Shown here: in pieces, positions 659 through 63,300 of the stretch | Numbering within the stretch: position 1 is the stretch's first letter | Layout: each line of letters opens with the position of its first letter | Source: an uncultured Bacteroidales bacterium | Lineage (GTDB): Bacteria; Bacteroidota; Bacteroidia; Bacteroidales; WCHB1-69 | DNA: 64,000 bases | Assembly (NCBI GenBank): GCA_905235135.1 | Contig: CAJOKR010000013.1 | Span: forward strand, 82-64,081 | Direction: 5' to 3' | Program-made: the position numbers and the translations under genes | Notes under the pieces: model-generated | The model's input: only the letters and a program-made list of their open reading frames with translations | The model's database searches: none | Told to the model about the DNA's origin: nothing

Positions 659-773
659 AATTAGGAATTGGGAATGAGGAATTAGGAATGCTGGAAAACC
701 GAAACGTTTTGCGCAAAACGTTTCGATTCCCGAAATAATCACTCATTACTCATTACAAATTGCTAATTGAATT
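659..773. repeat. cargo-less heptamer-array hairpin element with central perfect palindrome
   Basis: Left arm 659-690 is AATTAGG AATTGGG AATGAGG AATTAGG AATG. Right arm 737-771 reverse-complements to AATTAGC AATTTGT AATGAGT AATGAGT. A perfect 26-bp palindrome CGAAACGTTTTGCGCAAAACGTTTCG lies at 700-725. Confidence 0.75.
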
Positions 774-832
774 CCGCCTCCGCATGGTCGGAAATGTACA
801 ACAAGGTGCTACAGTTCGGCACGGGCGTATTC

Positions 833-1301
833 AATTAGGAATTGGGAATGAGGAATTAGGAATTGTCGGGAAGCCGTTTCTGAGTGCCGTCTTTTGTGGA
901 TTTGGTTATGGAAGAAAGCATCCTTATAAGTTCACGGCAGTCGGCAACAATGCTTTCAAAATGTGAAGATTCAATCTTCCCGCTCTCGTGAAGCAGTTCC
1001 AGCCAATACTCCGTTTCAACGGCCTCCTTGAATGCGATGTACATCTTGGCGAGGAAGTCGCTCCGGCTTTGCGCGGCCGTCGCTTCCCGCACATTCGCCC
1101 CGACGCTCGTTCCGCTTCTCGACACCTGATCTGCCAAGGTGAACAGTTTCTTTGTGACGAGATAATCATTCAACTTTATGATTCTCAAAGCAAAAGCCTT
1201 GCTTTTCACTACAATGGGATTGTCTTCGTTCATGGTTCAAAAATTTCCTGCGAAAGTACGATTTTTTTTAATTCCTAATTGCTAACTCCTAATTCCTAAT
1301 T
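833..1301 (-). mobile_element. IVS-like cassette: four-helix-bundle gene bracketed by inverted heptamer arrays
   Basis: Arrays 833-865 and 1270-1301 are inverted and both termini read AATTAGGAATT. 31 nt of 833-863 are identical to 659-689. Deleting these 469 nt joins the flanking ORF pieces in phase. Confidence 0.35.
856..1233 (-). CDS. four-helix-bundle protein (23S rRNA intervening-sequence protein / Avd family)
   Basis: 125 aa. Family-typical motifs QVSRSGTSVGANVREA and SRSDFLAKMYIAFKEAVETEYWLELL. The stop codon lies inside array 833-865. Confidence 0.85.
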   Translation of the reverse strand: MNEDNPIVVKSKAFALRIIKLNDYLVTKKLFTLADQVSRSGTSVGANVREATAAQSRSDFLAKMYIAFKEAVETEYWLELLHESGKIESSHFESIVADCRELIRMLSSITKSTKDGTQKRLPDNS

Positions 1302-1358
1302 GAACTGGGTTCCGCCGTCAACGAGCTGGGCAAGACCAGCACGGCCAACGAGCAGTAC

Positions 1359-4300
1359 ATGGTCAACTTCACGGGGCGGCTGGGCGGCATCGCCGTGCAG
1401 GCCGGACTCGCCGCCGACCAGATACTCGGCTTCGCCTCGGCTTTAGACCAGGATATGCAAAAGGTTGAGATGTCGGCCACGGCGTTCCAAAAGCTCATCC
1501 AAAAGGTCATATCCAAGCCCGCCGAGTTCGCCAAGATTGCCGGAATGGAACTCGGCAAGTTCAAGCAGCTCATGGAGACCGACATGAACGAGGCCCTGAA
1601 GAAAGTCCTCAAGGGCTTCTCCGGCGCGGGCGGCTTTGACAAGCTGCTGCCCATCTTCCAAGACCTTGGGCTTGACGGGGCAAGAGCCGCAGCGGCCATC
1701 TCATCCATGGCCAACAGCCTTGACAAGGTGGAGGCGGCACAGGCCATTGCCAACAAGGCCATGCTGGAGGGCGTGTCCTGCTACGAGGAGTTTTCCGTCA
1801 AGAACAACAACATGCAGGCCAACTTGGAGAAAGCCCGCAAGAAGTTCCAGGACACACGCCTCGAACTGGGGCAAAAGCTGTACCCAATATTGCTGAAGCT
1901 GACCAAGACCAGCACGGCGGGCATCAAGGCCATATCCACTGCCACCTCGTGGATAAGCAAGAACAAGGGCATGGTGCTGGCCATCATCGCGCCGCTCACT
2001 TTGTACATCGCCAAAGTGACGCTGCTGAAGACCCGTCTGTTGCTGCTCACTGCTGCAGAAAAAGCCGGAGTGGTCATCAAAGCCGCCTACAAGACGGCGG
2101 TCTATGCGGTGGCCGCAGTGCAGGCGAAGATGGCTGGCAACACCGAAAGGGCGGCAGCGGCGGTCAGAAAGATGAACGCATCGGCCAACGCCGTGCCGTG
2201 GGTGGCACTGGCCACCGCCATCGTAGCGGCAGGCACGGCCATCTACAAGCTGGCCACCCGCACCACGGCGGCGCAGAAGGCCATGAAGGACTTCCACGAG
2301 CGCACCGCCGAGCAGAAAGCGGAGGCCGACAGACTCTTCGGCGCACTTCGGGAACTGCGCAAGGGCACTGACGAATACAACAAGGTGCAGAAGAAAATCA
2401 TAGAGAACTATCCCACGATACTCCAGGACCAGCTGGACGAGAAGGGGAACATCCTCGACATCGAGCAGGCCTACAACAAGGTCATCACCGCCATGAAGCG
2501 CAAGATAGCCCTTGACATCCAGCAGGAGCAGATAACGGAGATAATGAAAAAGGAGATGGACAGACTGGGCACCTCGCTCAAACACCTATCGCCGGAAATC
2601 GGCGGCAAGGCGGTGGAGCTGGCCGAGAGCGGTCTTACCTCCGAGACCATCATCCGCTCCCTCAACCGCTACCTGCTCAAGGACAGAAAGCTGAACGACA
2701 AGGAGGAGTTTTGGATCCGCAACGTCACCAAGATTGTGCAAGAGGAGCAGGCCAAGATTGAGAAGGTGAAGCAGAACCTCGCCCCGTGGATCGGCGACCA
2801 GCTGGACGCGGTGGTCGCCGACATCGAGCAGGAAACCGCTGGCGGCAACGGCGGTGGCGGCGGAGGCATGGAATCCGCCGAGGATGTCGCCACCAAGAAG
2901 CTGACCGAATGGGAGAACCTCCAAAAGGAGGTCAGGAAGCTGTTCCAAAAGGACGAACTCATCGGGCTGGACAAAGTAGCCGCCGACAAGGAGAAAATCC
3001 GGCAGGAGTACGGCGACCTTGTGGAGCGCATCGAGGCCTTCACCGACAGCAAGGGGCAGGCGGCCAAAGACCTCGCAGACCAGGTGCGGCAGTACATGGC
3101 CAACGCCATAAACGAGATTGACCGCGCCGCCCGTGCCGAACAGATGAAGAAAGTCACGCAGCAGTACGAGAAACTGTGCGAGCAGTTCCAGACCCTCAAG
3201 GAGAAACTCGGGCAGAACCTCACCGACAGCTACTCGGCGGAACTGCTGCAGGTGGAGCAGAGGTGGAAAGCCACCATCGCGGAGATTGACCGCTCCATCG
3301 CCTACTACGAGAACAAGAGCAAGGAGGAGTACAATCCCGAAACGGGGACAGGCCTCAACGAAGACGAGCTGAGACTGCTTGAAGACCTGCTCGAACAGAA
3401 GCGGCAGGCCATAGCCCTCGAAGCGCAGGAGGAACTCTCCATCGTGCAGCGTGCCGAAGCCGACATCACCGAAGCGCTGATGACGGAGACGGAGAAGCGC
3501 ATCGCGGCGGTGAAAAAGGAGTACCAGGCGAAAATCTCCGCCGCCCAGTCCGCCATCGCCAAGCTCAAGGCATTGGGCGAGCAGGAGAAGCAAGACCGCA
3601 TCCGGCAGCTTGAGGAGCAGATAAAAGCCCTCAAGGAGAAGATGAACGAGGAGACCGCCGCGATTGAGAAGTCCTCCCAAAAGGGAAAGGCCACCACGGG
3701 CATCGGCAAGCTTCTCGACATCGATTGGAAGAACTTCAAGAAGGACTGGGAGAAGAACCTGTCGGACATCGCCGACGTGATAAAGGACTTCGCCGACACC
3801 GCCATGCAGCTCTTCGAATCCATCAACCAACTACAGAGCAACAAGGAAAAAGCCGCCCTCAACGAGTACAAGAAAGGCTATGACGAGCGGAAGAAGAAAT
3901 TAGACTGGCAATTAGAGCAGGGCATCATCTCGCAGGAGTACTACAACGCGCAGGTGGAGCAACTGGACAAGGAGCGCGACGCCAAGGAAAAGCAGCTGGA
4001 AATAGAGCAGTTCCGCAGGGAGAAGAAAGCGGCCATCGCGGAGGCCATAATCTCCGGCATCGTAGCCGCCGTGAAGAGCTTCGAGAACGGCGGCGGCTTC
4101 CCGTGGGGTCTCATCTCCATGGCACTCTCCCTCGCCGCCACGGGCGTGCAGGTCGCCGCCATCGCCTCGCAGCCGGAACCCTACGCCAAGGGCGGCTACA
4201 TCGAGCGGGAGAAGAACATCGTGGCAGGGGAGCGCGGCAGGGAGTGGATAGCCTCAAACGAGCTGGTGACAGCCCCCGAGACAAAGCCCGTCATCGAAGC

Positions 4301-4625
4301 CCTTGAGGAATACCGCAAGGGCAACAAAGCCCCGCTGCGGGAGATTGAAATGGCGGTTCCCGACAGCCGCAGCGTGTCCCAGGCGGCCACCGCCATTAGC
4401 CGTACATTTGCCCCCGAAAGAACAGAGAGAGCCGTCACCAGCAACCACTACCACACCGCGCAGGCGGATGACGGGACGATGGGCAGGATGCTGGAGGAGC
4501 TGACCGCGCTGCGCCAGTACATGAGCGACCCGAAGAACAGGCAGGCGGTCATCAGCCGGGAACTCCAGCTTGAGTTCGAGCAGCAGGAGAGCTTCCTCCG
4601 CAGGGCGGCTTCGCTAAAACAGTAG
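1359..4625 (+). CDS. phage tail tape-measure protein, 5'-disrupted
   Basis: 1088-aa ORF. The N-terminal part (FTGRLGGIAVQAGLAADQILGFASALDQ...MSATAFQKLI) resembles the TP901-type tape-measure core. Also has a hydrophobic Ala-rich stretch, a Gly run and long Glu/Lys/Ala coiled coil. Frame is open upstream to 1293 with no credible start. Confidence 0.8.
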   Translation: MVNFTGRLGGIAVQAGLAADQILGFASALDQDMQKVEMSATAFQKLIQKVISKPAEFAKIAGMELGKFKQLMETDMNEALKKVLKGFSGAGGFDKLLPIFQDLGLDGARAAAAISSMANSLDKVEAAQAIANKAMLEGVSCYEEFSVKNNNMQANLEKARKKFQDTRLELGQKLYPILLKLTKTSTAGIKAISTATSWISKNKGMVLAIIAPLTLYIAKVTLLKTRLLLLTAAEKAGVVIKAAYKTAVYAVAAVQAKMAGNTERAAAAVRKMNASANAVPWVALATAIVAAGTAIYKLATRTTAAQKAMKDFHERTAEQKAEADRLFGALRELRKGTDEYNKVQKKIIENYPTILQDQLDEKGNILDIEQAYNKVITAMKRKIALDIQQEQITEIMKKEMDRLGTSLKHLSPEIGGKAVELAESGLTSETIIRSLNRYLLKDRKLNDKEEFWIRNVTKIVQEEQAKIEKVKQNLAPWIGDQLDAVVADIEQETAGGNGGGGGGMESAEDVATKKLTEWENLQKEVRKLFQKDELIGLDKVAADKEKIRQEYGDLVERIEAFTDSKGQAAKDLADQVRQYMANAINEIDRAARAEQMKKVTQQYEKLCEQFQTLKEKLGQNLTDSYSAELLQVEQRWKATIAEIDRSIAYYENKSKEEYNPETGTGLNEDELRLLEDLLEQKRQAIALEAQEELSIVQRAEADITEALMTETEKRIAAVKKEYQAKISAAQSAIAKLKALGEQEKQDRIRQLEEQIKALKEKMNEETAAIEKSSQKGKATTGIGKLLDIDWKNFKKDWEKNLSDIADVIKDFADTAMQLFESINQLQSNKEKAALNEYKKGYDERKKKLDWQLEQGIISQEYYNAQVEQLDKERDAKEKQLEIEQFRREKKAAIAEAIISGIVAAVKSFENGGGFPWGLISMALSLAATGVQVAAIASQPEPYAKGGYIEREKNIVAGERGREWIASNELVTAPETKPVIEALEEYRKGNKAPLREIEMAVPDSRSVSQAATAISRTFAPERTERAVTSNHYHTAQADDGTMGRMLEELTALRQYMSDPKNRQAVISRELQLEFEQQESFLRRAASLKQ

Positions 4626-4628
4626 GCA

Positions 4629-6272
4629 ATGGCAGTAACGATAAGAGAACAACCACACCCCCTTGACTTCGCAGGAAACCGCCCGCGCTTCCTGCTGAAG
4701 GGCACACCCGTCGCCACCGCCGGAAGCAAGAGCCGGAGCGCGTGGCGCGTGACCGCGCTGCCGTCCTCCGTGCTGACAGTCGGCTTCGGCGACACCGTCC
4801 TTGACTTCCAGATCACCTCGCCGTACCAGGCACGCGACAGGGCGGACAGGATAGCGGGCTACACCGACGCTTCCATGCTGAAAAAGGAGCTTCAGAGCAA
4901 GATAGCCGAGCATTACACCATTTCCCGCCACTACGATGTGACGTTGGCGGACGATCTCACCCTCACGTTCCTCTCCAAGGAGTACGGCGGCGAGGTCGTG
5001 ACCGTTGACGGCAACGGCAGCGGCAACATCGAGCAGGTGGGGCAAGTCCTGGGCGTGGCAAGGGTGCAACGTCCCAACTACGGCGTTTTGGCGTGGCTTG
5101 AAGTGACGCGCTACAACAGCGGTGCGGTGCAGGAACTGGCCACACCCGAAATGATCCTGCACCTTGACACGGACAACCTCGTGGAGCTGCCCCTTGAAAT
5201 CCTGCGTTCCTATTTCGCGGCCACTGACGTTCCAAACCTTACGGAGACATTCAACGCCTACCCGCTGCTGTACGCCACTCTCAAATACCGCCTCGCCTAC
5301 ACGGACATATCTGGGGAGGTGCCGCAGGCGGGAGTGGTGAAGCGGTCGCAGGAGTTCATCCTTGCCGCAGGCGGGCTTGATGACCGCCACCACGTCCTCA
5401 ACCTCGCCGACTGGCAGACCGCGATGGGCGCAGGGGCGACCCTTTCCGAACACGTTGCCGTCCGCAACTTCGGTTGTCCCACAGGGCTGACGGTGCGCAC
5501 CTACGCCTCGTTGCCACAATACGCCTACTTCCTGCTCTTCAACATATACCAGGACACCGCCCACACAAGAAGCCTCGTGGTGAAGGTTGACGTGCGGCTG
5601 AAAGACGGCCACACCTTTTCCCTCGACATGGGAACGGTCACGGTGCAGAACTTCAACATTGTGAGAGTGCCTTTGTCCGCCGCCGCCCTCGGAATCCCGT
5701 CAGCAGGGGACGTGCTTTCCTACACCGTCATTGCGGGAAACAACAAGGGCGAGACCTGGACACGCACATTCGTGCTGGAAAGAAAGCCCTACAACGCACA
5801 GGAGTTCCTGCTTCAGAACCGCTACGGGCTTTTGGAGACCCTCTCCACGGACTCTTCAGCCGTGGAGGAGCATACGGACGGCAGCGACACGGTGAAGAAC
5901 GGCGTTGTCGGCGTGGACATCACCGACACGGCCACCGTCCACACGGCACGGACGGGCTACAAGAACGAGCGAGAAATCAGGTTGGTGGCCGAGGCGATGA
6001 GAAACCGATTCAACTTCCGCTATGTTGACGGAAGAGCCGTGCCCATTGCGATACTTCCCGACACGCTCACCGTGACCGACACCGCCGAAGACCTCATTTC
6101 CGCCGAGTTCCAATACCGCTTCAACAAACCTTCCACGGCCAAGGCGGGCAACCTGCCCGTTGATCCGGGAACGGTGGAACGGTGGGACGACGACCTTATA
6201 TGGCGGGATGACCTGCAACGTGCAGGTGTCCGGCAGAACGAGATAGCAAACCAATACAACCTCACAAGATGA
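4629..6272 (+). CDS. phage tail-associated structural protein (function unknown)
   Basis: 547-aa ORF starting 4 nt after the tape-measure stop, with the same codon bias. Position is typical of distal-tail or tail-tip genes. No motif recognised. Confidence 0.6.
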   Translation: MAVTIREQPHPLDFAGNRPRFLLKGTPVATAGSKSRSAWRVTALPSSVLTVGFGDTVLDFQITSPYQARDRADRIAGYTDASMLKKELQSKIAEHYTISRHYDVTLADDLTLTFLSKEYGGEVVTVDGNGSGNIEQVGQVLGVARVQRPNYGVLAWLEVTRYNSGAVQELATPEMILHLDTDNLVELPLEILRSYFAATDVPNLTETFNAYPLLYATLKYRLAYTDISGEVPQAGVVKRSQEFILAAGGLDDRHHVLNLADWQTAMGAGATLSEHVAVRNFGCPTGLTVRTYASLPQYAYFLLFNIYQDTAHTRSLVVKVDVRLKDGHTFSLDMGTVTVQNFNIVRVPLSAAALGIPSAGDVLSYTVIAGNNKGETWTRTFVLERKPYNAQEFLLQNRYGLLETLSTDSSAVEEHTDGSDTVKNGVVGVDITDTATVHTARTGYKNEREIRLVAEAMRNRFNFRYVDGRAVPIAILPDTLTVTDTAEDLISAEFQYRFNKPSTAKAGNLPVDPGTVERWDDDLIWRDDLQRAGVRQNEIANQYNLTR

Positions 6273-6727
6273 TAGAGACAATCAGCAACGGAATGGATCT
6301 CGCCCGCGTGCGCGAAATCCTCAACAGACTCATTGAGCGTGTCAACGAGCTGGAACGTGTCACCAACAGCTATGACGACCTGGAGAACCGTCCTGCCATT
6401 AACGGAGTGACGCTCACCTCGCAGACTTCGGTGCAGGACTTGCAGATTCCCGCATCCTCGCTGGTGGGCTACAGCGACCTCATTGCACAGGCGCAGCAGG
6501 CGGCGGCGCAGACCGCCGAAAGCACGGCGCAGACCACAGCCCGCGCCAAGCTGGACGGCGACCTCACCAAGCTGCAGCCGAGAGAGTACGAGTTGGCCAC
6601 CTCCATGCTCGTTGTCATCGGCGACGACAAGGGCAACGCCTACAAGACCACCTTGGGCGACCTCATAGACTACCTCAAGCACGAGGTGCTGAAGCTCAAC
6701 GACCAATATCTGCGCGTTATCAAGTAA
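6269..6727 (+). CDS. phage hypothetical protein
   Basis: 152-aa ORF with ATGA start/stop overlap to the upstream gene. Lies in the tail module. Confidence 0.55.
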   Translation: MIETISNGMDLARVREILNRLIERVNELERVTNSYDDLENRPAINGVTLTSQTSVQDLQIPASSLVGYSDLIAQAQQAAAQTAESTAQTTARAKLDGDLTKLQPREYELATSMLVVIGDDKGNAYKTTLGDLIDYLKHEVLKLNDQYLRVIK

Positions 6728-6761
6728 TACCAACCAACAACTCACTTAAACTCAAACCACT

Positions 6762-7454
6762 ATGGGACAGATCATCAAATACCAACAGGAGGCCTTCAAC
6801 GGCCAGCTCGTGAACGGCTCGCCCGACTACGACATTCTCTATCCGAAGACCAGCGCCGACCAAGTGGAAGGCCTTGCCGCCCTCATCCAGTCACAGCTTC
6901 CGGCTATGACTGACACCAAGGTGCAGTCCATCACGCTGACGGACGGCACGGATTCCGCAGGTCCGAAAATCACCGTCACGCTCACGGACGGAACATCAGT
7001 GACGAGCACGACAATCAACCTCGCCTCGACCTCCAAACACGGCGTGACCAAGCTGACCAGTGCTGTGAACAGTTCCTCCGAAGTGCTGGCGGCAACCGCC
7101 AAAGCGGTCAAGACCGCCTACGATTTGGCGAACACCGCCAACACGACCGCCAATGGAAACGCCTCAGACCTTGCCGGCCTCCACAGCAACCTTGAGGACA
7201 AGTGCCTCAAAGTGGTGACCTACAACGACCTGAACATTCTCAAGAAAGCTGTTTCCCTCACCCTTGACGATAAAATCAAAGCCAGTAACTTGGTCAATGT
7301 CATCGCATTCAATGTGGCTAAAGACACCAATGCAGTGACTATTGTCAACGAGGGTGTGACGTTCGGCATTATAAGCGGAAAGCTGCAGGTCAACAGCACC
7401 GCCATTACGGTGCATCGCGTGAAAGTCGTTTACGAGTACTCATTCGCAAAATAA
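6762..7454 (+). CDS. phage tail fibre-like protein
   Basis: 230 aa. The motif SKHGVTKLTSAVNSSSEVLAATAKAVKTAYDLAN resembles a segment conserved in many tail fibre proteins. Confidence 0.55.
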   Translation: MGQIIKYQQEAFNGQLVNGSPDYDILYPKTSADQVEGLAALIQSQLPAMTDTKVQSITLTDGTDSAGPKITVTLTDGTSVTSTTINLASTSKHGVTKLTSAVNSSSEVLAATAKAVKTAYDLANTANTTANGNASDLAGLHSNLEDKCLKVVTYNDLNILKKAVSLTLDDKIKASNLVNVIAFNVAKDTNAVTIVNEGVTFGIISGKLQVNSTAITVHRVKVVYEYSFAK

Positions 7455-9937
7455 TGCTCACGATAGAGGTCAACGGTAACGCGCTGCATATCGCAAAGGG
7501 AACGTCCCTGCAGATGGAGGTGAACAGCTGCGTCTTCTCAACGGACGGCGTTGAGGGCGACATCATGTTCACCTTCGACGTGCCCGCCGCCAGCAACGAC
7601 ACGGTGTTCCGCCACGCCCGCTTCGTCTATGTGCAGCGGCTGAAGAAGTACGCTTGCACCGTCAAGGCGGGAGGGATAGAGATTGCACGCGGTGACCTCT
7701 ACATCCAAAAGGCGACACAGACCACGTACTCCTGCGGACTGGTCATCAACCCGTGGCCGGAAGGCTTTGCCGACAAAAAGCTGAAAGAGAACGACTACGG
7801 CGAGGATGTTGTCATCAGCCGCAATGCCACGGAACACAACGCCAAGTGGTTGGAGTTCCTCAAATCAACCCTCACTCCGGATTCCGTGGTCAAGTTCCCG
7901 CTGTTCCTGGACACGGCCTTTTATGGCAGCGGGAACAACGACTTCGGCTGGTTTCTCACGCAGTACGACAACGCGCCGGAGAATGTCAGCGGCATCCAAG
8001 CTTCTCTGAACACCAACGACAATGTGGGGCTTGACCGTTGCTACATCAACCGCCTCTTCTTCAACTCTGGCGGTGATGTGATAGAGGAAAGACCGGGAAA
8101 CCGAGGCGTGCGGGTGTTCAACAACCGCACCGCCGACAACCCCAACAGCTTCGCTTTCTGCCCAGCCCTCCAGCTTACATGGCTGCTGGGCAGGGTGGTG
8201 GCGAACGGGGGCTATCGGGCGGAGGGCGGATTCCTGCATGACACCGACACCGCAAAGATCTATTCGCAGAGTCTTCGCGCCTTGGACGGCCTGCTCACGC
8301 AGTTCGACAACGAGGCCGGATTCAGTGCTGGAATCACGCCGTCCGTGGACTACTACCACACCATGTTTGCCGGAATGCCACACTTCATGCAGCCGTTCAC
8401 CGATTCGGAGGGCAACGAGCAGTATCTTTTCTACCCCAAGGCCGACGGCACACACCATTTCCACGTGGTTGTCAGAACATACCTGCCCGCCAACGTGGTT
8501 CAGAACGGCACGACCGAAGTGGAGGAGAACGGCAACACCGTGACCAGGCACTACGAGGAGGCGCTTGTTTTCATGATGACCGACAGGCTGAACAATCTGT
8601 GGAAAGCCACGGCGTCAAGCCTCTACGGGAATTGGGACGACATGGATTCGCTGTTCGGCCACTGGTACCAGCCGTATTATGTGAAGACGTTCAAGTCCAA
8701 CCAGCTCTCCTCATTCGGCTATGCCGGAGCGGGCTTCTATGAGATAACTTTTGATTTCACCGTCAACGACATGGACAGAAACCAGATGTATATGTTTGCT
8801 TTCGCAAAGTGCAGGGGAATGATGGAAGAAGTCGGCGGATACGGCCAGCGGCTGGTGATCAAAGACTTCGAGAGCGTGCCGATTACCGCCGACGCGACCT
8901 CGTACAGCAAGGTCTATAACTGCTTCGCCGACAGACTGCGCTACGGCGAGCACGTCCCCGACCTTACCAACGCGGACTTCATCGGCACGCTGTGCAAGGC
9001 CTTTGGCCTGGCCATGTTCCTTGACTCCACCACCAAGCGGGCGGAGTTCGCCTTCGTGCGTGACATCCTTGAAAAGTCGGGCTTTCTCGACCTCACGGCA
9101 TACGCCGTGGACGGCGAGACCGCCATAGAGAAGACCGATGAGCGGAAATACGTTTTCAAGCTGGAGGGCGTGACCACGGACGAAACGGACAGCACCAAGA
9201 CGCTGCCCGCTGTGCCTACAGCGGACTGGCTGCCTGATGCAGCGGCCAACTACGGGAAAATCTGTTTCGTGGAGAATGAGAACCGCTACCGAAAGGCGGA
9301 GCGGGAGGGGGACAGCATCGCCAACTGGGTGTTCCGCTGGAACCCGCAGGGCGGTGCAAATCAAACCTTGAAGGCAGGGGAGGGAAGCGAGGAGAGCATG
9401 ACACCCACGCTGAAAGTTCCCGTGATGGAAATCACGGATTCCAAGTCCGAACACCCGGAGTTTGTCATGCGCATCGAGCAGGCGGGCTGCAGCCCTGTCT
9501 TCGACACGGGCAACACGGACTTCCCGATGGTGCTGGAGACCTACCTCGGTAGTCGTCAGCTGGCAATCCCGCAGGCGGGAAGCCCCTTCATAGAGGTGGC
9601 GCAGCCGACACGGCACTCCCGCTACGGCGACCCCCTTGACGGCGTTTCGCTGACCGTCCGTGGGGACAACTCCGTGGGGCAGCTGTGGGTGAGTTCGTGG
9701 CTGGACTTCCTCGCCAACTACGAGAAAGTGCGCTACCGCTTCCTGCTGCCGTTGTCGGAGTTCCTCAACCTTTGGCGGCTGCTGAAGCCGCAGGACGGGC
9801 GGGTGCAGAGTCACACCCGCTGGCTGCTGGTCGCCGGAGTGAAGAGCCTGCCCGTCAAAATTACCTTCCAGTTCACCGAGGGCGGCGAATCCGTCACTGC
9901 CGAAGTGGAGGCCGCGAAACTTAAAGTGACACTTTAA
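7454..9937 (+). CDS. large phage structural protein (baseplate or host-recognition candidate)
   Basis: 827-aa ORF with TAATG overlap to the fibre-like gene. Last gene of the tail module. No motif recognised. Confidence 0.6.
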   Translation: MLTIEVNGNALHIAKGTSLQMEVNSCVFSTDGVEGDIMFTFDVPAASNDTVFRHARFVYVQRLKKYACTVKAGGIEIARGDLYIQKATQTTYSCGLVINPWPEGFADKKLKENDYGEDVVISRNATEHNAKWLEFLKSTLTPDSVVKFPLFLDTAFYGSGNNDFGWFLTQYDNAPENVSGIQASLNTNDNVGLDRCYINRLFFNSGGDVIEERPGNRGVRVFNNRTADNPNSFAFCPALQLTWLLGRVVANGGYRAEGGFLHDTDTAKIYSQSLRALDGLLTQFDNEAGFSAGITPSVDYYHTMFAGMPHFMQPFTDSEGNEQYLFYPKADGTHHFHVVVRTYLPANVVQNGTTEVEENGNTVTRHYEEALVFMMTDRLNNLWKATASSLYGNWDDMDSLFGHWYQPYYVKTFKSNQLSSFGYAGAGFYEITFDFTVNDMDRNQMYMFAFAKCRGMMEEVGGYGQRLVIKDFESVPITADATSYSKVYNCFADRLRYGEHVPDLTNADFIGTLCKAFGLAMFLDSTTKRAEFAFVRDILEKSGFLDLTAYAVDGETAIEKTDERKYVFKLEGVTTDETDSTKTLPAVPTADWLPDAAANYGKICFVENENRYRKAEREGDSIANWVFRWNPQGGANQTLKAGEGSEESMTPTLKVPVMEITDSKSEHPEFVMRIEQAGCSPVFDTGNTDFPMVLETYLGSRQLAIPQAGSPFIEVAQPTRHSRYGDPLDGVSLTVRGDNSVGQLWVSSWLDFLANYEKVRYRFLLPLSEFLNLWRLLKPQDGRVQSHTRWLLVAGVKSLPVKITFQFTEGGESVTAEVEAAKLKVTL

Positions 9938-11127
9938 TTAGGGTCTTTTTCGTATGCAAAACCAGGGGCTTTCTCTCGTATCAATTCACTGAGGTGCGGG
10001 TCTGCATGGTTGGAATAGAGCGTTGTCATAGAGAGTGAGTAGTGGTCAGCCAGCTGCTTGACATCAAGGCCGTGTTTGAGCATTTCCGTGATACCCGTGT
10101 CGCGCAAGGAGTACTGCTGCATCTCCATCGGCAAATCGAACATCTTACGCAACTTGTCCCAGTACTTTCGGTATGGGCGCGGAGAAGCTGGTGTCTTTCC
10201 GGGCTTTTGGTAGGCACTGAACAAGTAATGTTCCGCCGGATGTCTGTCAAGGTTCAGTTTCAAAAGTAACTGTTCAATTTCTTTGGTCATGGGGACAATC
10301 CTCTGTTTGCCGTTTTTGGAGACTTCCGCCCTCACGGTGATGGTCTTGTTTGCCATGGAAACATCCCCGACCAAGAGCATCAGAATCTCTTTCGGACGCA
10401 GCAAAGCCCCGTAAATCAGTTCCAGGAACACGAGATAACCCGGATTGTTTTCCACGAGGTACTTTTGAATCTCCACGCGCTTTTCAACAGGAATAAGGAC
10501 ACGCTTTTTCTGCCCGACCTTCTTTGTCTTGATTTTTTGGAAGTGATTCTCCTTGCAATAGCACTTTTCTATCATCCAAGAAAACAACGCACTTCCGTTC
10601 TTGACATAGTTGTTGTACGTCCGTGGGCTGATGTCGCCGTCCCTGCCACATCTTTCGTTCTGAACATAGTCCATGAACTGCACAATCATACTGTGCGAAA
10701 TCATGGAACTGTAGATTTTCGGTGCTGTTTTTGCGAGCCATTCGCCAAATATTCCGGCGAAGGAGATGTAAGATCGGGCGGTCGTCGAGCGATGCTCTTT
10801 CTGCGCATCCTCCTTGTAGAGTTCCAACACTTCAGACATGGGCGTGTACATGCGCGAATCCTCTCCTTGGAAGTAAGGATTCCAACCCGTAGAGAGCTTC
10901 ATGTTAAGAGCAACAACAATGTTGTTGATATGTTTCTTAGCTTCCGTCTTGGAAGAATATCGGCTTAGAAGCCGCTGGAGTTTGATTCGCTTACGCGCCA
11001 GTTCTTGTGTCTGTGGATTCTCCACATAGTATTCAATCAACCAACCTGACTTGTTGGTTTTCACCGGCAGATAGTTTGTCGCGGCATACGCCGAAGATAC
11101 GGCTAACCTGTTCTGACTATATGACAT
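9934..11127 (-). CDS. tyrosine-type site-specific integrase
   Basis: 397 aa. C-terminal catalytic boxes LLRPKE (Arg), YSLRDTG (H/Y-x-x-R) and HYSLSMTTLY (His...Tyr). Adjacent to the 3' end of tRNA-Gly. Confidence 0.85.
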   Translation of the reverse strand: MSYSQNRLAVSSAYAATNYLPVKTNKSGWLIEYYVENPQTQELARKRIKLQRLLSRYSSKTEAKKHINNIVVALNMKLSTGWNPYFQGEDSRMYTPMSEVLELYKEDAQKEHRSTTARSYISFAGIFGEWLAKTAPKIYSSMISHSMIVQFMDYVQNERCGRDGDISPRTYNNYVKNGSALFSWMIEKCYCKENHFQKIKTKKVGQKKRVLIPVEKRVEIQKYLVENNPGYLVFLELIYGALLRPKEILMLLVGDVSMANKTITVRAEVSKNGKQRIVPMTKEIEQLLLKLNLDRHPAEHYLFSAYQKPGKTPASPRPYRKYWDKLRKMFDLPMEMQQYSLRDTGITEMLKHGLDVKQLADHYSLSMTTLYSNHADPHLSELIREKAPGFAYEKDPN

Positions 11128-11253
11128 TTTTTTTTTGAGTCTTGCTCAGCAAGTCTCAAAATGATGTTTGTCCCGTTTCTGTCCCGATTTTAAAACAGAA
11201 ATCAGCAACCTACCGTTGTAAGTTGCTGACACTGATTAAATTGGAGACGTTTG

Positions 11254-11326: not shown

Positions 11327-11330
11327 GTTT

Positions 11331-11417
11331 TGGTTTAAGGTTGATGGTTCATGGTTTAAGGATTCTGTCGATTCACGAGGCTATCCTTAAACCCTAAACC
11401 TTAAACATTAAACCTTA
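11331..11417. repeat. heptamer-array hairpin (GTTTAAG / CCTTAAA type)
   Basis: Left arm TGGTTTA AGGTTGA TGGTTCA TGGTTTA AGGAT. Right arm ATCCTTA AACCCTA AACCTTA AACATTA AACCTTA. An 11-bp perfect stem GGTTTAAGGAT/ATCCTTAAACC sits next to the loop. The ychF stop codon is inside the right arm. Confidence 0.75.
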
Positions 11418-17064: not shown

Positions 17065-17454
17065 ATGAGAAGAATGACAGTAAAGAGAAAAGTGAAATTT
17101 GAAGGTGTTCCCTACGAAGGAAACCTGGAAGAGTTAATCATACAAGCCCTGATTGAGAAGCAGGGAGTGGATATCCATTGCGTCAACTTGAAGAAAATCA
17201 ACCACGTTTATTTCGACTATTTTATAGTCTGCACCGGCAACTCCAAGCCGCATGTGGAGACGTTGTGCGACTTTGTGCAGGAGCAGACCCAGCGCGTGGC
17301 CGGCGTCAAACCGCTGCACGTCGAGGGGCTCGAAAACAAAGAGTGGGTGCTGCTCGACTATTTCAATATCCTGGTCCACATTTTCCTCCCCGAGGCCCGC
17401 GAGCACTACCAGCTTGAGTCTCTCTGGGGCGATGCGGATATCCAGAAGTTTTAA
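17065..17454 (+). CDS. rsfS: ribosome silencing factor RsfS
   Basis: 129 aa. The motif FDYFIVCTGNSKPHV...WVLLDYFNILVHIF is typical of RsfS/IojAP. Lies upstream of ftsH. Confidence 0.85.
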   Translation: MRRMTVKRKVKFEGVPYEGNLEELIIQALIEKQGVDIHCVNLKKINHVYFDYFIVCTGNSKPHVETLCDFVQEQTQRVAGVKPLHVEGLENKEWVLLDYFNILVHIFLPEAREHYQLESLWGDADIQKF

Positions 17455-17490
17455 GGCAAAAGGCAATAGGCAATAGTAATTGGAAATTAA
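17454..17490. repeat. heptamer array filling the rsfS-ftsH spacer
   Basis: AGGCAAA AGGCAAT AGGCAAT AGTAATT GGAAATT AATG. It starts at the last base of the rsfS TAA and ends at the ftsH ATG. Confidence 0.7.
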
Positions 17491-20863: not shown

Positions 20864-20973
20864 GAGCTTTGGCATTCCTGCCGAAGAAAATCACTAAATC
20901 CCACGTCATTCCATTTTTTTTTCTAAAATCCCAACAAAATGCGATTTTTGTGCCCGCCATTTTGAAATTTTAT

Positions 20974-20981
20974 TATTTTTG
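20974..20981 (+). promoter_or_regulatory. -7 promoter box (TATTTTTG)
   Basis: TAnnTTTG, 27 nt upstream of ATG 21008. Confidence 0.5.
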
Positions 20982-21007
20982 CGGCAAAATCTTAATATGT
21001 TGGTATT

Positions 21008-21229
21008 ATGAGTTTGCTTGACATAGGAAATAGAATTCGGATGCGCAGGAAGGAACTGAATGTGAACCAGCGCACTGTGGCCGACCTTTCAGGGGTTGCC
21101 GTGAACACCGTGGTATCTATTGAACGCGGAGAGGGGAATCCGCAAATCTCCTCCCTTCTTGCCATTCTCGACACCCTCGGACTACAGATAGACATCACTA
21201 TAAAACAATTGAACGATGAGACAGTGTAA
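21008..21229 (+). CDS. XRE-family HTH protein, HipB-like
   Basis: 73 aa. HTH segment RRKELNVNQRTVADLSGVAVNTVVSIERGEGNP. Overlaps the next gene by 14 nt. Confidence 0.75.
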   Translation: MSLLDIGNRIRMRRKELNVNQRTVADLSGVAVNTVVSIERGEGNPQISSLLAILDTLGLQIDITIKQLNDETV

Positions 21230-21539
21230 AGTTTTTGTCCACGACATAGAGGCTGGACTGTTGCAGGAAAACAATGACAAGACCTACTGTTTTACATACA
21301 ACAGCGATTATAGCGGAGCTCCGGTCTGCCTGTCCATGCCCGTAAGGGTGTCGCCGTATTTGTCCGAGCACCTTTTCCCTTATTTCTTCAACATTTTGTC
21401 TGAAGGCGAAAACCGTCAGCTCCAGTCGCAATTGCTTCACATTGACGAGAATGACGATTTCGGTATCCTTTTAGCAACTGCGCAAACCGACACTCTCGGT
21501 GCAGTAACCGTAAAACCAATAGGTGATGAAAAAGATTGA
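21216..21539 (+). CDS. HipA N-terminal-subdomain protein (HipS-like)
   Basis: 107 aa. CKVFVHDIEAGLL...YCFTYN...PVCLSMP resembles the HipA N-terminal coupling domain as a stand-alone ORF. Overlaps the kinase gene by 17 nt. Confidence 0.7.
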   Translation: MRQCKVFVHDIEAGLLQENNDKTYCFTYNSDYSGAPVCLSMPVRVSPYLSEHLFPYFFNILSEGENRQLQSQLLHIDENDDFGILLATAQTDTLGAVTVKPIGDEKD

Positions 21540-22530
21540 TGTTTGTCCCTCAACATTGAAAAGCGGTTTTGAAACATACTCGCCCGAAGCCCGGCGCAAA
21601 ATGTTTAATGGCAGGCCTGTTTCGCATATACTCTTGTTTGAGAGCCCTGGAGTAGATGAAGAGGAGAGAGTCGTCTATGCAGAGCATGTGGGTCGGATTT
21701 CCTTGTCAGGGGTGCAGCCGAAAGGCGGTCTTGTGATTGATGACAACGATCAGTTGGTGCGACCAGCCGAAGGATTGCGCAGCCGTTATATTCTGAAGCC
21801 CGCTCCGAGTTCATACGCGCTTCTCGCTCGTGAGTTCTGTCCCGCCAACGAAAACTTCACGATGCAGCTTGCCTCCCAAGTTTATGGCATAGAAACCGCA
21901 GCTAATGCCCTCTGTTTCTTTCGTAGTGGTGAGACCGCTTACCTGACACGCCGTTTCGATGTTGCCCCTGATGGGGGAAAATTCCTTCAGGAGGATTTTG
22001 CCTCGTTGGCCGGGCTGACTAAGGCAAACAGTGGAAGTGATTACAAATACAGCAACCTCAGTTATGAGGAATGTGCCGGCATCATACGTCGCTATGTGAC
22101 TGCCGCTCAAATTGATGTGTTACGGTTTTTCCAAATCGTGGTCTTCAACTACATCACCTTAAACGACGATGCGCATTTGAAGAACTTCACGCTTATCAGC
22201 AGGAATGGGAAGGAATACCGGCTGGCACCGGCATACGATTTGATCAACACCAGCCTTCATTTGCGCCAGCCCCGCATCTTTGCTCTTGACAAGGGACTCT
22301 TCAAGGAAGGAATGTCCTTTTCCGATGTGCACACGGTCGGAAGAAACGACTTCAAGGAATTTGGTCGCAGAATTGGACTGCCTGAGCGGGTTGTGGAGCG
22401 GGAGCTTAACCGTTTTGCAGCCGATAACCCAACCGCCGATGAACTCCTGAACCGGAGTTTTCTGTCCAACGAGTTGAAAGCTTATTACCGGTCGTCGATG
22501 GGCTACCGCCGCACCACACTGCTCAAATAG
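21523..22530 (+). CDS. HipA-family Ser/Thr kinase core (HipT-like toxin)
   Basis: 335 aa. Gly-rich loop ISLSGVQPKG, catalytic NDDAHLKNFTL and APAYDLINT motifs of HipA kinases. Lacks the N-terminal subdomain. Confidence 0.8.
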   Translation: MMKKIDVCPSTLKSGFETYSPEARRKMFNGRPVSHILLFESPGVDEEERVVYAEHVGRISLSGVQPKGGLVIDDNDQLVRPAEGLRSRYILKPAPSSYALLAREFCPANENFTMQLASQVYGIETAANALCFFRSGETAYLTRRFDVAPDGGKFLQEDFASLAGLTKANSGSDYKYSNLSYEECAGIIRRYVTAAQIDVLRFFQIVVFNYITLNDDAHLKNFTLISRNGKEYRLAPAYDLINTSLHLRQPRIFALDKGLFKEGMSFSDVHTVGRNDFKEFGRRIGLPERVVERELNRFAADNPTADELLNRSFLSNELKAYYRSSMGYRRTTLLK

Positions 22531-22961
22531 CTCGTCAACGGCTGATACGCTTGGCCCTTTGTTCCTAAAATATTGATAACTTGTTGATAACTTCCGGCTG
22601 TCGTGGATGGCGAATCTGCGGCGGCGGTGTTTCATGGTTTTAATAAAACAAACAGCCTATAGAATAGAGAATACTTTTTAACATATTGATATAAAGCGTT
22701 TTCGCTTTTCTTTTTGGCGTGGGAATCTGCAAAATTTTCAACGTTATTATCCAAAAGAAAGACGAGAATGCTCACGACTAATCGTGGGCTTTCTTATATT
22801 GGATAATAGGTATTGCAGAACCTCCACGCCTGATAAGATAAAGTTCACGATTCTTTTTATGTTTGTGAATGAATGCGAAAACGGTTTAGAAAAAACTGGA
22901 TTTCAAAAGAATACGAACATAAAAGAATAGGAATAGGAAAAAACTGTTACCCCTTATCGTT

Positions 22962-23423
22962 TTGTTTATCATGACATCAGCGAACGTGTTCGCCCAGTCT
23001 GCTATTGTGCCATTAGGAGGTGATGCGCAGTCCAACTCAGGCAGCGTCAGCTACACCGTCGGGCAAATAGCCGTCCAAACTACAGCCAACAGTAGCGGTT
23101 CCATCGCCGTTACCGAAGGCGTGCAACAACCCTACGAAATCCAAACCGTAGGGGTTGATAACTATCCGCAAATCAGTCTCAATGCCGTGATCTATCCCAA
23201 CCCCACGGAGAATATCGCGCAGCTGCAACTCAATGGCTTCGAGATTCCCGCAAACGGTCTCCGTGCAATCCTCTACGACGGCAACGACAAACAGTTGCAG
23301 TCCGTTACCATCACCGACGACCTCACCCCGTTCCAGATCGGGCAATACGCCACGGGAACGTATTATCTGGAATTGCGGGACGGAAAACAGGTGTTGAAAA
23401 CTTTCAAGGTGGTGCGGAAATAG
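22962..23423 (+). CDS. small secreted protein with T9SS C-terminal sorting domain
   Basis: The C-terminus VIYPNPTENIAQLQL...TYYLELRDGKQVLKTFKVVRK is a Por tail. The start is uncertain: a signal-peptide-like frame is open from 22923 with no ATG/GTG before TTG 22962. Confidence 0.6.
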   Translation: MFIMTSANVFAQSAIVPLGGDAQSNSGSVSYTVGQIAVQTTANSSGSIAVTEGVQQPYEIQTVGVDNYPQISLNAVIYPNPTENIAQLQLNGFEIPANGLRAILYDGNDKQLQSVTITDDLTPFQIGQYATGTYYLELRDGKQVLKTFKVVRK

Positions 23424-23430
23424 AACCGTT

Positions 23431-23458
23431 GTAGAGACGCAAAATTTTGCGTCTCTAC
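23431..23458. repeat. GTAGAGACG palindromic hairpin (copy 1)
   Basis: GTAGAGACGCAAAATTTTGCGTCTCTAC is a perfect 28-nt palindrome, 8 nt after a stop codon. Confidence 0.85.
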
Positions 23459-61727: not shown

Positions 61728-61750
61728 AGAGACGTTGGGATGACGTCTCT
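61728..61750. repeat. GAGACG-type hairpin (copy 7, shortened)
   Basis: AGAGACGT TGGGATG ACGTCTCT. Confidence 0.65.
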
Positions 61751-61787
61751 GTCATGACATCCAATAACCCTTAACCATTGTGAGATA

Positions 61788-63284
61788 ATGGCAGACAACG
61801 AAGTCAAAAAACTGGCCGGACAGACGGTCATATACGGCGGGAGCACCGTGCTGGCGCGACTCCTCAACTACCTGCTGGTGCCGCTCCACACCTACATCTT
61901 CCAGAACGCGTCGGACTACGGTGTGGTTGGCGAGCTTTACGCCTGGACCAGCCTCTTCATCGTGATTCTCACCTATGGCATGGAGACCGCCTTCTTCAAG
62001 TTCTCGCAGGATGACGGCATCAAGGACCGCGTCTATAGCACCGTGGTGGGGTCGCTGCTCTGCACCTCCACCCTCTTCATCGTGCTCTGCGGAATCTACT
62101 CGCAGCCCATCGCCGAATGGCTGCAATACCCCAATCATCCCGAATATGTGCGCTGGTTCTCTGTAATCATCGGCGTGGATGCGCTCACCTCCATCTTTTT
62201 TGCGCACCTGCGGTTCCAAAATCGGGCGATGACCTTCGCGGCGGTGAAGATCACCAACATCCTCGTCAACGTGCTGCTCAACCTCTTCTTCCTGTTGCTC
62301 TGTCCGTGGCTGCTCACCAAGAACCCCGACTCCGCCTTCGTCAACGCTATTTACAACCCTGAAATCGGGGTCGGCTATATCTTCATCGCCAACCTCGTGG
62401 CCAGCATCGTTACCCTGCTGATGCTCTTCCCGGGCATCTTCAAGCAGAAGTTCGTTTTCGACTGGCAGCTGTGGAAGAAGATGTTCCGCTACGCCTTCCC
62501 GCTGCTGATCTTCGGTTTGGCCGGCATCGTGAACGAGACGATGGACCGCGTGCTGCTCAAGCGGCTTTCGCTCGCCCCCGACCCGCAGGCCTCCGTGGGC
62601 ATCTACAGCGCCTGTTACAAGATCTCCATCATGATGACCATCTTCATCCAGGCCTTCAAATACGCCGCCGAACCCTTCTTCTTCCGCAAGGCGAAGGACA
62701 AGGACGCGAAAGAAACCTACGCCGAAGTGATGACCGCTTTCGTGCTGGTCTGCTCGATCATTTTCGTTGGCATCATGCTCTACATCGACCTCGTGCAATA
62801 TTTCGTGGGACCGGGCTACCGCGTGGGCCTGCCCATCGTCCCTATCTTGCTGATGGCCAACCTCTTCCTCGGCATCTTCTACAACCTTTCAATCTGGTAC
62901 AAGCTTACCAGCCAGACCAAATTCGGAGCCTACATCGCCATCTTCGGGGCGGTCATCACCCTGGTTCTCAACTGGTTGCTGATTCCGCGTTTCGACTACA
63001 TGGGTGCGGCCTGGACCACCTTCGCCTGCTACCTCTCCATGATGGTCGTCTCTTACCTTCTCGGTCAGAAGTACTACCACGTCGATTACGACCTCAAGCG
63101 CATCCTCTTCTACCTTTTCTTCGCGGTGGCCGTGTATGGGTTGAGCCTCGGTATCTACCATCTGTTTGGCATTGAGAAGGTCTGGGTGCGATTGGTGGTG
63201 AATACGGTGATTTTGATCGGGTATTTGGGAGTGCTGGCGTGGATGAACCGGGAAGAACTTAAGAAGTTAGTAGTTAGAAGTTAG
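61788..63284 (+). CDS. polysaccharide biosynthesis protein / oligosaccharide flippase (MOP superfamily)
   Basis: 498 aa with about 12-14 TM segments. The N-terminal LAGQTVIYGGSTVLARLLNYLLVPL is typical of Wzx-like flippases. Confidence 0.65.
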   Translation: MADNEVKKLAGQTVIYGGSTVLARLLNYLLVPLHTYIFQNASDYGVVGELYAWTSLFIVILTYGMETAFFKFSQDDGIKDRVYSTVVGSLLCTSTLFIVLCGIYSQPIAEWLQYPNHPEYVRWFSVIIGVDALTSIFFAHLRFQNRAMTFAAVKITNILVNVLLNLFFLLLCPWLLTKNPDSAFVNAIYNPEIGVGYIFIANLVASIVTLLMLFPGIFKQKFVFDWQLWKKMFRYAFPLLIFGLAGIVNETMDRVLLKRLSLAPDPQASVGIYSACYKISIMMTIFIQAFKYAAEPFFFRKAKDKDAKETYAEVMTAFVLVCSIIFVGIMLYIDLVQYFVGPGYRVGLPIVPILLMANLFLGIFYNLSIWYKLTSQTKFGAYIAIFGAVITLVLNWLLIPRFDYMGAAWTTFACYLSMMVVSYLLGQKYYHVDYDLKRILFYLFFAVAVYGLSLGIYHLFGIEKVWVRLVVNTVILIGYLGVLAWMNREELKKLVVRS

Positions 63285-63300
63285 TAGTTAGCAGTTGTAA
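63266..63300. repeat. heptamer array (GTTAGTA type)
   Basis: GTTAGTA GTTAGAA GTTAGTA GTTAGCA GTTGTAA. Contains the flippase stop TAG 63282-63284. It is the reverse-complement flavour of array 37484-37518. Confidence 0.8.

Follow-up and report, generated by a model that had tools for sequence, protein, structure and literature searches.

Tandem heptanucleotide arrays in a Bacteroidales genome segment and their coupling, as inverted flanking arms, to four-helix-bundle protein genes across bacterial phyla

The gene spacers of an uncultured Bacteroidales bacterium raise the question of what the short tandem arrays of imperfect 7-nt units that occupy them are, and why such arrays should also stand on both sides of a gene for a small four-helix-bundle (4HB) protein. 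The DNA analysed is a 64,000-nt stretch of contig CAJOKR010000013.1, hereafter the window, in which an earlier note, made from the sequence alone, had described at least 15 such loci as a dispersed family. We found that these arrays belong to a known class of heptanucleotide repeats, that they are coupled to 4HB genes as matched inverted arms, and that they turn over rapidly between strains. The source organism is a deep-branching member of the Bacteroidota, with an FtsH at most 65% identical to that of any species representative; the nearest is a termite-gut metagenome-assembled genome, whose 9.6-kb contig likewise carries arrays, of AGGAATT and TTAAACC units.

Period-7 arrays were located by scoring matches between positions i and i+p along the window, with 20 second-order Markov simulations of the window as background. 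At a score of at least 9, our scan returned 15 period-7 arrays versus a simulated mean of 0.2 and maximum of 2, with 0–5 arrays for each of the remaining periods from 4 to 15, and at a score of at least 13 nine period-7 arrays were observed versus 0 expected, which bears out the description of a dispersed and non-random intergenic family. Tandem Repeats Finder gave 16 period-7 rows and 3 period-14 rows describing the same arrays (copy numbers 3.3–7), and in the sequence itself all 15 loci hold imperfect tandem 7-nt units at the listed coordinates, the calls at 29105–29132 and 36805–36828 being weaker at ~2.5 units each; the total for the window is 15–20 arrays. Each unit consists of a conserved core and a few free positions, as in the ARTKAGG profile of one family. 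A greedy map of open reading frames (ORFs) classes 91% of the window as coding, and the arrays lie in or at the edge of the spacers, with a weak one at 300–314 as the sole exception, while an Rfam search of the window returned nothing but three tRNAs and no rRNA. By their coordinates, nine stop codons do lie inside or directly abut an array, and in five co-directional gene pairs the array is the whole spacer; Pfam confirmed the gene names (23S_rRNA_IVP, YchF, RsfS, Fib_succ_major, AMP-binding, Metallophos, Na/H exchanger, HAD, Lip_A_acyltrans, BPD_transp_1 and Polysacc_synt). The arrays supply stop codons and last few codons to adjacent genes.

The same arrays occur at the same places in 13 contigs from other ruminant-gut assemblies, and since these derive from other samples, the arrays are not assembly artefacts. 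In the ruminant-gut RNA libraries X1, X2 and X6, contig word depth over the AATTAGG and GTTTAAG arrays was 5–100 times that of the flanking genes (29671–30004 and 32009–32342), and dozens of contigs with unrelated flanks terminated in these arrays; therefore the same arrays occur at many loci of the community and break its assemblies.

The earlier note knew of no described element class with these properties, a statement that fell on comparison with the literature, as they are shared by the GGGAATC repeats (PMC4692102), the TAACTGA repeats (PMC4679880) and the short tandemly repeated repetitive (STRR) sequences or heptanucleotide long simple-sequence repeats (LSSRs). The window arrays belong to this class, having its period-7 excess, intergenic dispersal, degenerate core units, length of about four units, convergent pairs and copy-number variation between strains. 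The closest match is the GGGAATC family of Xanthomonas, mostly of 4 units, with 70–75 convergent pairs per genome, 89–93% of them intergenic and at a mean distance of 28 nt to the upstream ORF (PMC4692102); degenerate core units, about four units per array, inverted pairs, proximity to the upstream ORF and length variation are all found here as well. Xanthomonas, however, has one G-rich unit family genome-wide that was studied as a G-quadruplex former, whereas several AT-rich families, none of them G-quadruplex-capable, occur within our 64 kb, and the authors of that study did not note a link to 4HB genes (PMC4692102). The TAACTGA repeats of Beggiatoaceae, Cyanobacteria and Bacteroidetes, long in some of the latter, are likewise intergenic arrays, of 2–6 units and often directly 5′ of starts as here, and the TAACTGC-like array at 37484–37518 is one mismatch from their unit; that study followed a single unit, found almost no inverted sets and proposed binding of S1, cold-shock or CsrA proteins, and we found no 4HB link in its text or in one supplement (MacGregor 2015, PMC4679880). 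The cyanobacterial STRR sequences, known from heterocystous species, and heptanucleotide LSSRs, as cited in PMC4679880 and PMC4692102, are dispersed, intergenic and lineage-specific tandem heptamers, as are the arrays here. In the cyanobacteria examined by us (Nostoc, Planktothrix, Dolichospermum, Anabaena and Gloeocapsa), heptamer arrays flank the 4HB genes. The STRR sequences that Mazel is said to have described in 1990 were reportedly direct repeats used for strain typing, hairpin pairing and association with a gene family lying outside that description.

The window's own 4HB gene (856–1233, minus strand, 125 aa) matches PF05635, the family of 23S rRNA intervening-sequence proteins (E 9.4e-27), TIGR02436, four helix bundle protein (E 7.8e-30), and the solved structure PDB 2RLD (E 5e-28). 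Its cassette, at 833–1301 on the minus strand, is composed of a 5′ arm of (AATTAGG)n at 1301–1270, a 36-nt leader that contains a near-consensus Bacteroidetes −7 box, the ORF at 1233–856, and a 3′ arm of (CCTAATT)n at 865–833 that contains the 4HB stop codon. In both minimum-energy and centroid folds, the arms are predicted to pair as a ~36-bp stem closing off the whole ORF (z −4.3). The adjacent element at 659–771 (z −4.96) has no ORF and comprises an AATTAGG-type array (659–690), a 46-nt loop that itself contains a perfect hairpin, and a second array in inverted orientation (737–771); its left arm is identical to 833–864 and its outer flanks resemble those of the cassette, and by its sequence it looks like a duplicated, gene-less derivative of that neighbour.

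A public metagenome scan yielded 80 loci encoding relatives of this protein, nearly all with arrays on both sides, and the locus set came to 86 unique 4HB loci, including 14 from annotated plasmids, of which 78 had adequate flanks. In the 200 nt around the 4HB genes of the 86 loci, there were 153 period-7 arrays, and no other period between 4 and 12 gave more than 6. A period-7 array stood beside the 4HB gene in 76 of the 78 loci with enough flank, and on both sides in 58, with a modal length of 29–33 nt, typically 4–5 units. Among the roles that the earlier note had floated, a footprint of the cassette type at 833–1301 thus proved the best lead, the arrays being signature flanks of PF05635 genes, and the co-occurrence with four-helix-bundle genes that it had envisaged was found. 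The nearest arrays were mutually inverted in 55 loci and direct in 9, the direct cases usually having an inverted partner further out, and the units of the two arms agreed within one mismatch in 54 of 69 loci, with at least 12 unit families that are unrelated to one another. The 5′ array of most Bacteroidales cassettes reaches the ATG directly, and the promoter box TAnnTTTG was present between 5′ array and ATG in none of 71 metagenome cassettes, the window cassette alone showing a near-match.

The same arrangement recurs in distant lineages with other units. The 4HB gene is flanked by (CAATTCG)n and (AATTGCG)n in Nostoc punctiforme and by AATCCCC/AATCGTA and ACGATTT/GGGATTT in Planktothrix; Treponema saccharophilum carries ~40 GAAAGNG units as well as CTCTCCG arrays at its 4HB gene and Bernardetia fifteen ATTAGTG units, and heptamer arrays also stand at the 4HB genes of Dolichospermum, Anabaena cylindrica, Gloeocapsa, Euhalothece, Pseudanabaena, Calothrix (whose protein is only 26% identical), Chondrinema and, at two loci, Candidatus Chlorohelix. 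Within 30–40-kb stretches of plasmids from Nostoc, Treponema, Bernardetia and Planktothrix, almost every array, and every long one without exception, lay at or near a 4HB gene, with the exception of short Planktothrix arrays a few kb off, one of them with the same unit as the 4HB flank; eight further plasmid loci repeat the pattern. In Bacteroides contigs of the human gut, araD and araA are separated by the gene for a close homologue of the 2RLD protein (98% identical); both spacers are taken up by AATTGAC arrays, whose length differs by three units from strain to strain. The structure 2GSC, described as five four-helix bundles, is that of XCC0516 of Xanthomonas campestris. A GGGAATC array is placed on the start codon of XCC0516 in the supplementary table of Rehm et al. 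(PMC4692102), and XCC0516 is cited as a member of the 4HB family (PMC3936711), a family also mentioned in bioRxiv 10.1101/2024.02.27.582315. The module of gene plus arms is conserved across at least five phyla, the unit changing while the period of 7 stays constant and the arms keep matching: the link is present in Bacteroidota, Cyanobacteriota, Spirochaetota and Chloroflexota, with Xanthomonas added from the published table. Rfam returned nothing meaningful for ten cassette loci and has no family for the cassette. No paper linking PF05635 with heptamer arrays was found in the open-access corpus, where absence is not proof, and the link is apparently unreported before.

Cassettes lie between co-directional operon genes, including hsdS-hsdR, cas2-cas1, csx2-cas1, DUF1156-Swt1 HEPN, helicase-methylase, resistance-nodulation-division (RND) adaptor-permease and araD-araA; 4HB genes inside cas loci had already been noted by Zhang and Ye. 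Seven plasmid loci (L177, L184, L187, L188, L190, L191 and L179) have cassettes in defence operons. Gloeocapsa and Chlorohelix each have a DUF1156/Swt1-HEPN cassette, and the GATTTTA unit common to the two suggests that the operon as a whole has passed between phyla. In the Dolichospermum plasmid locus L184, five long AATTACG arrays (5376–9453) lie in sequence annotated as coding for a DNA methyltransferase and a hypothetical protein; either these genes are interrupted or their annotation has been carried across the arrays. Locus L179, filed as a 518-kb plasmid of Monoglobus pectinilyticus, has AATTAGG/AATGAGG arms of Bacteroidales type and a protein 55% identical to that of the window, and may be a misassigned plasmid or a transferred cassette.

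Convergent arrays form a long imperfect stem around a short loop or around a 4HB ORF, usually one that lacks a promoter, and the start and stop codons of the 4HB gene lie at the base of the stem; ribosomal RNA intervening sequences are built in the same way. The 23S rRNA intervening sequences of Leptospira, Coxiella and others encode a PF05635 protein. Like them, the window cassette is a PF05635/TIGR02436 ORF between inverted repeats that form a stem with each other, and it sits inside another transcription unit without abolishing that unit; unlike them, the cassettes lie between protein-coding genes or in a prophage gene rather than in an rRNA helix, and their arms are 7-nt arrays. Avd of the diversity-generating retroelements (DGRs) has the structure of a pentameric four-helix bundle, and DGR loci are not known for heptamer arrays. 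As a homologous pentamer, Avd binds nucleic acid and a partner enzyme (PMC10053308). No reverse transcriptase is annotated beside the 14 plasmid cassettes, and the neighbours of the window cassette are tape-measure fragments, the window as a whole not having been screened for reverse transcriptase; no template and variable repeat pair was found beside the cassettes examined. Type III toxin-antitoxin systems of the ToxIN kind, with ~34–45-nt repeats 5′ of an endoribonuclease gene, were rejected as a match, the unit here being 7 nt and the protein of another family.

Five loci of the window are convergent array pairs, namely 659–771, 11327–11417, 32205–32320, 34727–34808 and 37688–37760, and they fold as the earlier note had supposed, as long imperfect hairpins with z about −4.3 to −7.2 against shuffles (−2.7 to −7.2 for paired arrays overall, strain variants included). 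The GGTTTAA-type hairpin at 11327–11417 (z −7.2) fills the spacer from the ychF stop to tRNA-Gly, one arm beginning within the last ychF codons (TTT AAT GTT TAA), and the GTTTAAG/CTTAAAC hairpin at 32205–32320 (z −6.3) fills that from gmhB to the lipid A acyltransferase gene. The AGCTAAT/GGCCAAA-type hairpin at 34727–34808 (z −6.1) has its right arm broken at 34808 by a 2-kb segment (34809–36804) with three ORFs, including a DUF4942 gene, and the rest of the arm follows at 36805–36828 (GCCAATA GCTAATA GCTAAAG). The last, of AGCTAAT/AGCCAAT type (37688–37760; z −4.25), lies upstream of the promoter and start of an ABC permease gene. A recurring motif, AAAAAWTTCGTACYTTTGC, stands 5′ of start codons in the window (37761–37790, 37620–37650 and 1234–1269) and in strain contig L082 (13900–13950); with its Bacteroidetes −7 box, TAnnTTTG, it probably marks promoters directly beside several arrays.

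Comparison of strains showed that orthologous spacers differ by whole units, in line with the earlier suggestion that the arrays are slippage-prone. The AATTAGG array at 29908 has 5 units in the window versus 3 in strain contigs L082 and L083, and the arm at 32205 has 6 versus 4, the rsfS-ftsH spacer array being shorter in these two contigs as well; in L171, the array at 37484 has 6 units versus 5 in the window and that at 38887 two more than in the window. Arrays also lie at rearrangement junctions, as had been proposed. Strain contig L172 is without the 2-kb segment 34809–36804, and the array pieces that bound this segment in the window form one continuous in-phase array there, with no target-site duplication seen at the 34808/36805 junction. 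In L082 and L083 an extra hairpin and array stand 5′ of ychF, a position taken in the window by a spacer of 11 nt. Between the ychF stop and tRNA-Gly, different strains have four unrelated hairpins, with flanks 88–99% identical, each with its own loop and with units of GGTTTAA, AATTGAT, AATGAAG or GGTTAAC; three of the four fold clearly better than shuffled controls and the fourth more weakly, and every arm begins inside the conserved last ychF codons, TTT AAT GTN TAA. At this site structure is kept while sequence is swapped. The loops of eight ORF-less hairpins match only their own orthologues and are single-copy in 2.1 Mb of compared sequence.

Such turnover is what would be expected if the arrays were neutral, microsatellite-like products of 7-nt slippage, accumulating wherever selection allows and having neither function nor a specific tie to 4HB genes. 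Whole-unit differences between strains fit this principal alternative, as do the extension of arrays exactly to coding sequence, with the stop and last codons array-encoded, the 7-nt tandem duplication in a pseudogene fragment (300–314 versus 645–651) and the fact that in many genomes no class of long simple-sequence repeat is commoner than the heptanucleotides (Mrazek 2007, as cited in PMC4679880). Two properties that the earlier note had stressed are also at chance level. The phasing of every array as AAH-N4 does fit 20 of 20 window arrays, yet it carries no significance, as 68% of random heptamers of the same composition can be phased likewise; and the idea that all-frame translation stops are a selected role did not hold, with stops in all three plus-strand frames in 8 of 20 arrays versus 55% of random heptamer arrays of the same composition, and with unit types elsewhere (CAATTCG, AATCCCC and GGGAATC) that contain no stop triplet at all. 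The stop codons seem to arise incidentally, as AT-rich arrays lengthen up to the point where constrained coding sequence begins. However, neutral slippage leaves unexplained the convergent pairs with matching units, a length distribution that peaks at 29–33 nt instead of decaying from short to long, the hairpin kept at the ychF site through exchange of its sequence, and the concentration of nearly all arrays at or near a 4HB gene in the plasmid stretches of four genera. We consider it unlikely.

The remaining window loci are single arrays, essentially unstructured as RNA, several folding worse than their own shuffles, and where the flanking genes are co-directional, the purine-rich (ART-phased) strand is the sense strand in 7 of 7 cases. 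On the plus strand, the AGGCAAT array at 17453–17490 is the rsfS-ftsH spacer and is unstructured as RNA; the AATGNAG array at 27139–27166 lies between the stop of the Fib_succ_major gene and a GC-rich hairpin with T-run at 27168–27197; the short AATGNAG array at 29105–29132 (~2.5 units) covers the acyl-CoA ligase stop and the phosphoesterase start; the near-perfect (AATTAGG)x5.5 array at 29899–29946, less structured as RNA than its own shuffles, includes the phosphoesterase stop and ends 1 nt 5′ of the antiporter ATG; the AATGTAG/AATGAAG array at 38887–38928, with a predicted RNA folding energy of 0, includes the permease stop and fills the spacer to the next ORF; and the AGTTAGT array at 63265–63300 includes the flippase stop and is followed by an ordinary hairpin, between convergent genes. 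The CAGTTAG array at 37484–37518, on the minus strand, lies immediately 3′ of tRNA-Leu. The window also holds a 6.5-kb island (20867–27347), replaced by 62 nt in L082 and L083, that encodes a helix-turn-helix protein, a HipA-type toxin-antitoxin pair, a 1081-aa surface protein and the Fib_succ_major protein; a 66-nt tandem repeat at 24686–24825 (2.1 copies, 81% matches) within the 1081-aa ORF (23506–26751) is a coding repeat that keeps the reading frame and has no relation to the heptamer arrays.

These single arrays invite a second alternative, in which the arrays are sites for general single-strand RNA-binding proteins (S1, cold-shock or CsrA-type) that tune downstream translation, the 4HB gene being merely one target. 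The sense-strand, unstructured single arrays directly before starts agree with it, as does the extra ychF array of L082 and L083; so do the TAACTGA-like unit at 37484–37518, since most TAACTGA repeats lie within a few nucleotides of start codons (MacGregor 2015, PMC4679880), and the AGGA/AGGAG within ARTKAGG units that adjoins the 4HB start codon. Half of the loci, however, are convergent pairs that abut an upstream stop rather than a start, the Xanthomonas arrays are nearer to the upstream ORF, the many unit sequences per genome would need as many binding specificities, and the selective two-sided flanking of 4HB genes is left without explanation, so that we regard this alternative as quite improbable.

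The setting of the window cassette bears on how cassettes arrive. Positions 1–11250 are a degraded prophage beside tRNA-Gly, with an integrase (9934–11127) and a tail fibre-like gene, and the cassette sits in the prophage tape-measure gene, as it does in related contigs. The window's tape-measure gene (1359–4625) lacks ~200 N-terminal residues of the intact homologue P0121, of which leftovers remain at 617–658 (residues 1–13) and 772–832 (~residues 69–87). P0121 has ordinary, non-repetitive sequence at the cassette positions; therefore the arrays were not there beforehand but arrive with the cassette. Relative to P0121, residues ~14–68 and 88–221 are missing in the window and residues 51–222 and 399–617 in the related rumen contig L194, and these losses mark a decaying prophage remnant rather than clean insertions; removal of the cassette does not restore the tape-measure ORF, and an intervening sequence in a protein-coding gene was rejected for this reason. 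Of the cassette boundaries in this gene, the left ones differ between lineages and one right one is common to them. In L194, as in L196–L198, L200 and L202, two cassettes split the tape-measure gene into three ORFs, one with a 125-aa paralogue and AATTAGG arms and the other with a 117-aa paralogue and AATKGGC arms, and each downstream piece begins with an ATG directly after a cassette arm. Tape-measure genes may thus be a repeated landing place for 4HB cassettes. That different 4HB paralogues carry different array units is inseparable from simple co-inheritance. The window has two copies of the tape-measure gene start (MAKSSTRRV.IY), at 272–340 and 617–660, and the first copy has a 7-nt tandem duplication, CCATCTA CCATCTA (300–314), with an in-frame TAA, where the other has one unit (645–651); from its sequence, this looks like a fresh 7-nt duplication event in a pseudogene.

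A cassette that arrives with its own arms is reminiscent of the REPINs (hairpins of paired repetitive extragenic palindromic, REP, sequences) and their REP-associated tyrosine transposase (RAYT) genes, in which short palindromic spacer elements likewise accompany a gene that they flank in inverted orientation (Bertels & Rainey 2011, PMC3116915). The flanked gene here, unlike RAYT, is a small 4HB gene without known catalytic motif and not an HUH/Y1 (IS200/IS605-like) transposase, and the arms are variable tandem arrays of several unit families, with loops that are not multi-copy and with no near-identical copies. By extension, the arrays could be elements like REPINs or MITEs (miniature transposable elements with inverted repeats), non-autonomous and moved by a transposase encoded elsewhere, with the 4HB gene as passenger cargo. 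The terminal inverted arms, the several arrangements of cassettes in the prophage tape-measure gene, the presence/absence polymorphisms and the occurrence of different elements at one site would suit such elements. No transposase was found beside any cassette examined, however, and the cargo is nearly always of the same family, which argues against passenger status. A MITE was rejected as a match, since no target-site duplication was seen at 34808/36805, the loops are unique in the 2.1 Mb and the arms, being tandem arrays of variable length, are not fixed termini; we judge this explanation very improbable. Least credible of all is that the hairpins are the lineage's intrinsic transcription terminators, a role the earlier note had listed: although they start within or at stop codons and are predicted to form strong stems, these are AT-rich arrays without T-runs and no U-tract follows them, ordinary GC-rich hairpin and T-run terminators stand beside arrays at 27168–27197 and 63320–63345, and equivalent arrays occur inside operons that need read-through (araD-4HB-araA, RND adaptor-permease, cas2-cas1 and hsdS-hsdR).

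Taking these observations together, we hold with moderate confidence that the arrays are of the heptamer class, are coupled to 4HB genes as flanking arms, and act through RNA and protein in the following manner. Units would be gained and lost by replication slippage. Paired arms in a transcript may form processing or 3′-end-protecting stems at cistron boundaries, by analogy with the stems that RNase III cuts in rRNA intervening sequences, rather than terminators, while single purine-rich arrays could serve as structure-free spacers before starts in a phylum that does without Shine-Dalgarno pairing. The ORF-less hairpins and single arrays would be derivatives or relatives of cassette arms, and the pentameric 4HB protein may be the partner that recognises the 7-nt register: a period fixed at 7 while the sequence is free points to a register-measuring partner, for which the 4HB pentamer is the obvious candidate. 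The modal array, whose four units plus a core give five cores, might conceivably fit one core per subunit.

Several points weigh against this account. The link is not universal, two Firmicutes-like 4HB loci from sequences recorded as phage being free of arrays, and the window has one 4HB gene for ~20 arrays, with the cassette unit common to only four of them (659, 833, 1270 and 29908). The promoter-like −7 box in the window cassette implies that its own mRNA may lack the 5′ arm. The hairpin loops, unique in 2.1 Mb, mean that copy-and-paste mobility is not shown. A five-site model accommodates the modal length of ~31 nt only loosely, and many arrays greatly exceed that length. The RNA data are assembled metatranscriptome contigs; aligned to 28001–38000, they show the arrays in contigs with many different flanks and yield no transcript ends of use. 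Finally, a general bacterial preference for 7-nt slippage has been proposed (Mrazek 2007, as cited in PMC4679880), which would give the period without a protein.

A wider proposal is possible, and we put it forward tentatively: PF05635 pentamers and 7-nt arrays may be the two parts of a cross-phylum system in which arrays are read, and perhaps maintained or spread, by register and not by sequence. If so, a 4HB gene flanked by its own arrays would be comparable to a RAYT gene flanked by REP sequences, the system would have left its genomic footprint in the dispersed arrays of cyanobacteria (STRR), Xanthomonas, Beggiatoaceae and Bacteroidota, and rRNA intervening sequences would represent, as a special case, cassettes that had come to lie in an rRNA helix.

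The value of the finding lies in the cassette, a conserved and apparently unreported module in which a 4HB gene stands between inverted 7-nt arrays. Tandem heptamer repeats of bacteria have been known since 1990 and used for strain typing, with their origin and function unexplained, and PF05635 proteins have solved structures and thousands of members but no known function outside DGRs, even though their genes occur in rRNA genes, CRISPR-cas loci, restriction operons and sugar operons. In practical terms, the arrays differ in length from strain to strain, disrupt assembly from short reads, lie at points of rearrangement and specify the final residues of proteins encoded next to them, and their behaviour matters for annotation and strain tracking in gut and rumen metagenomes. 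The physical coupling of arrays and 4HB genes merges two open questions into one, whether the pentamer binds or processes its own arrays, and by tying heptamer repeats to the intervening-sequence protein family, the module makes both experimentally approachable.

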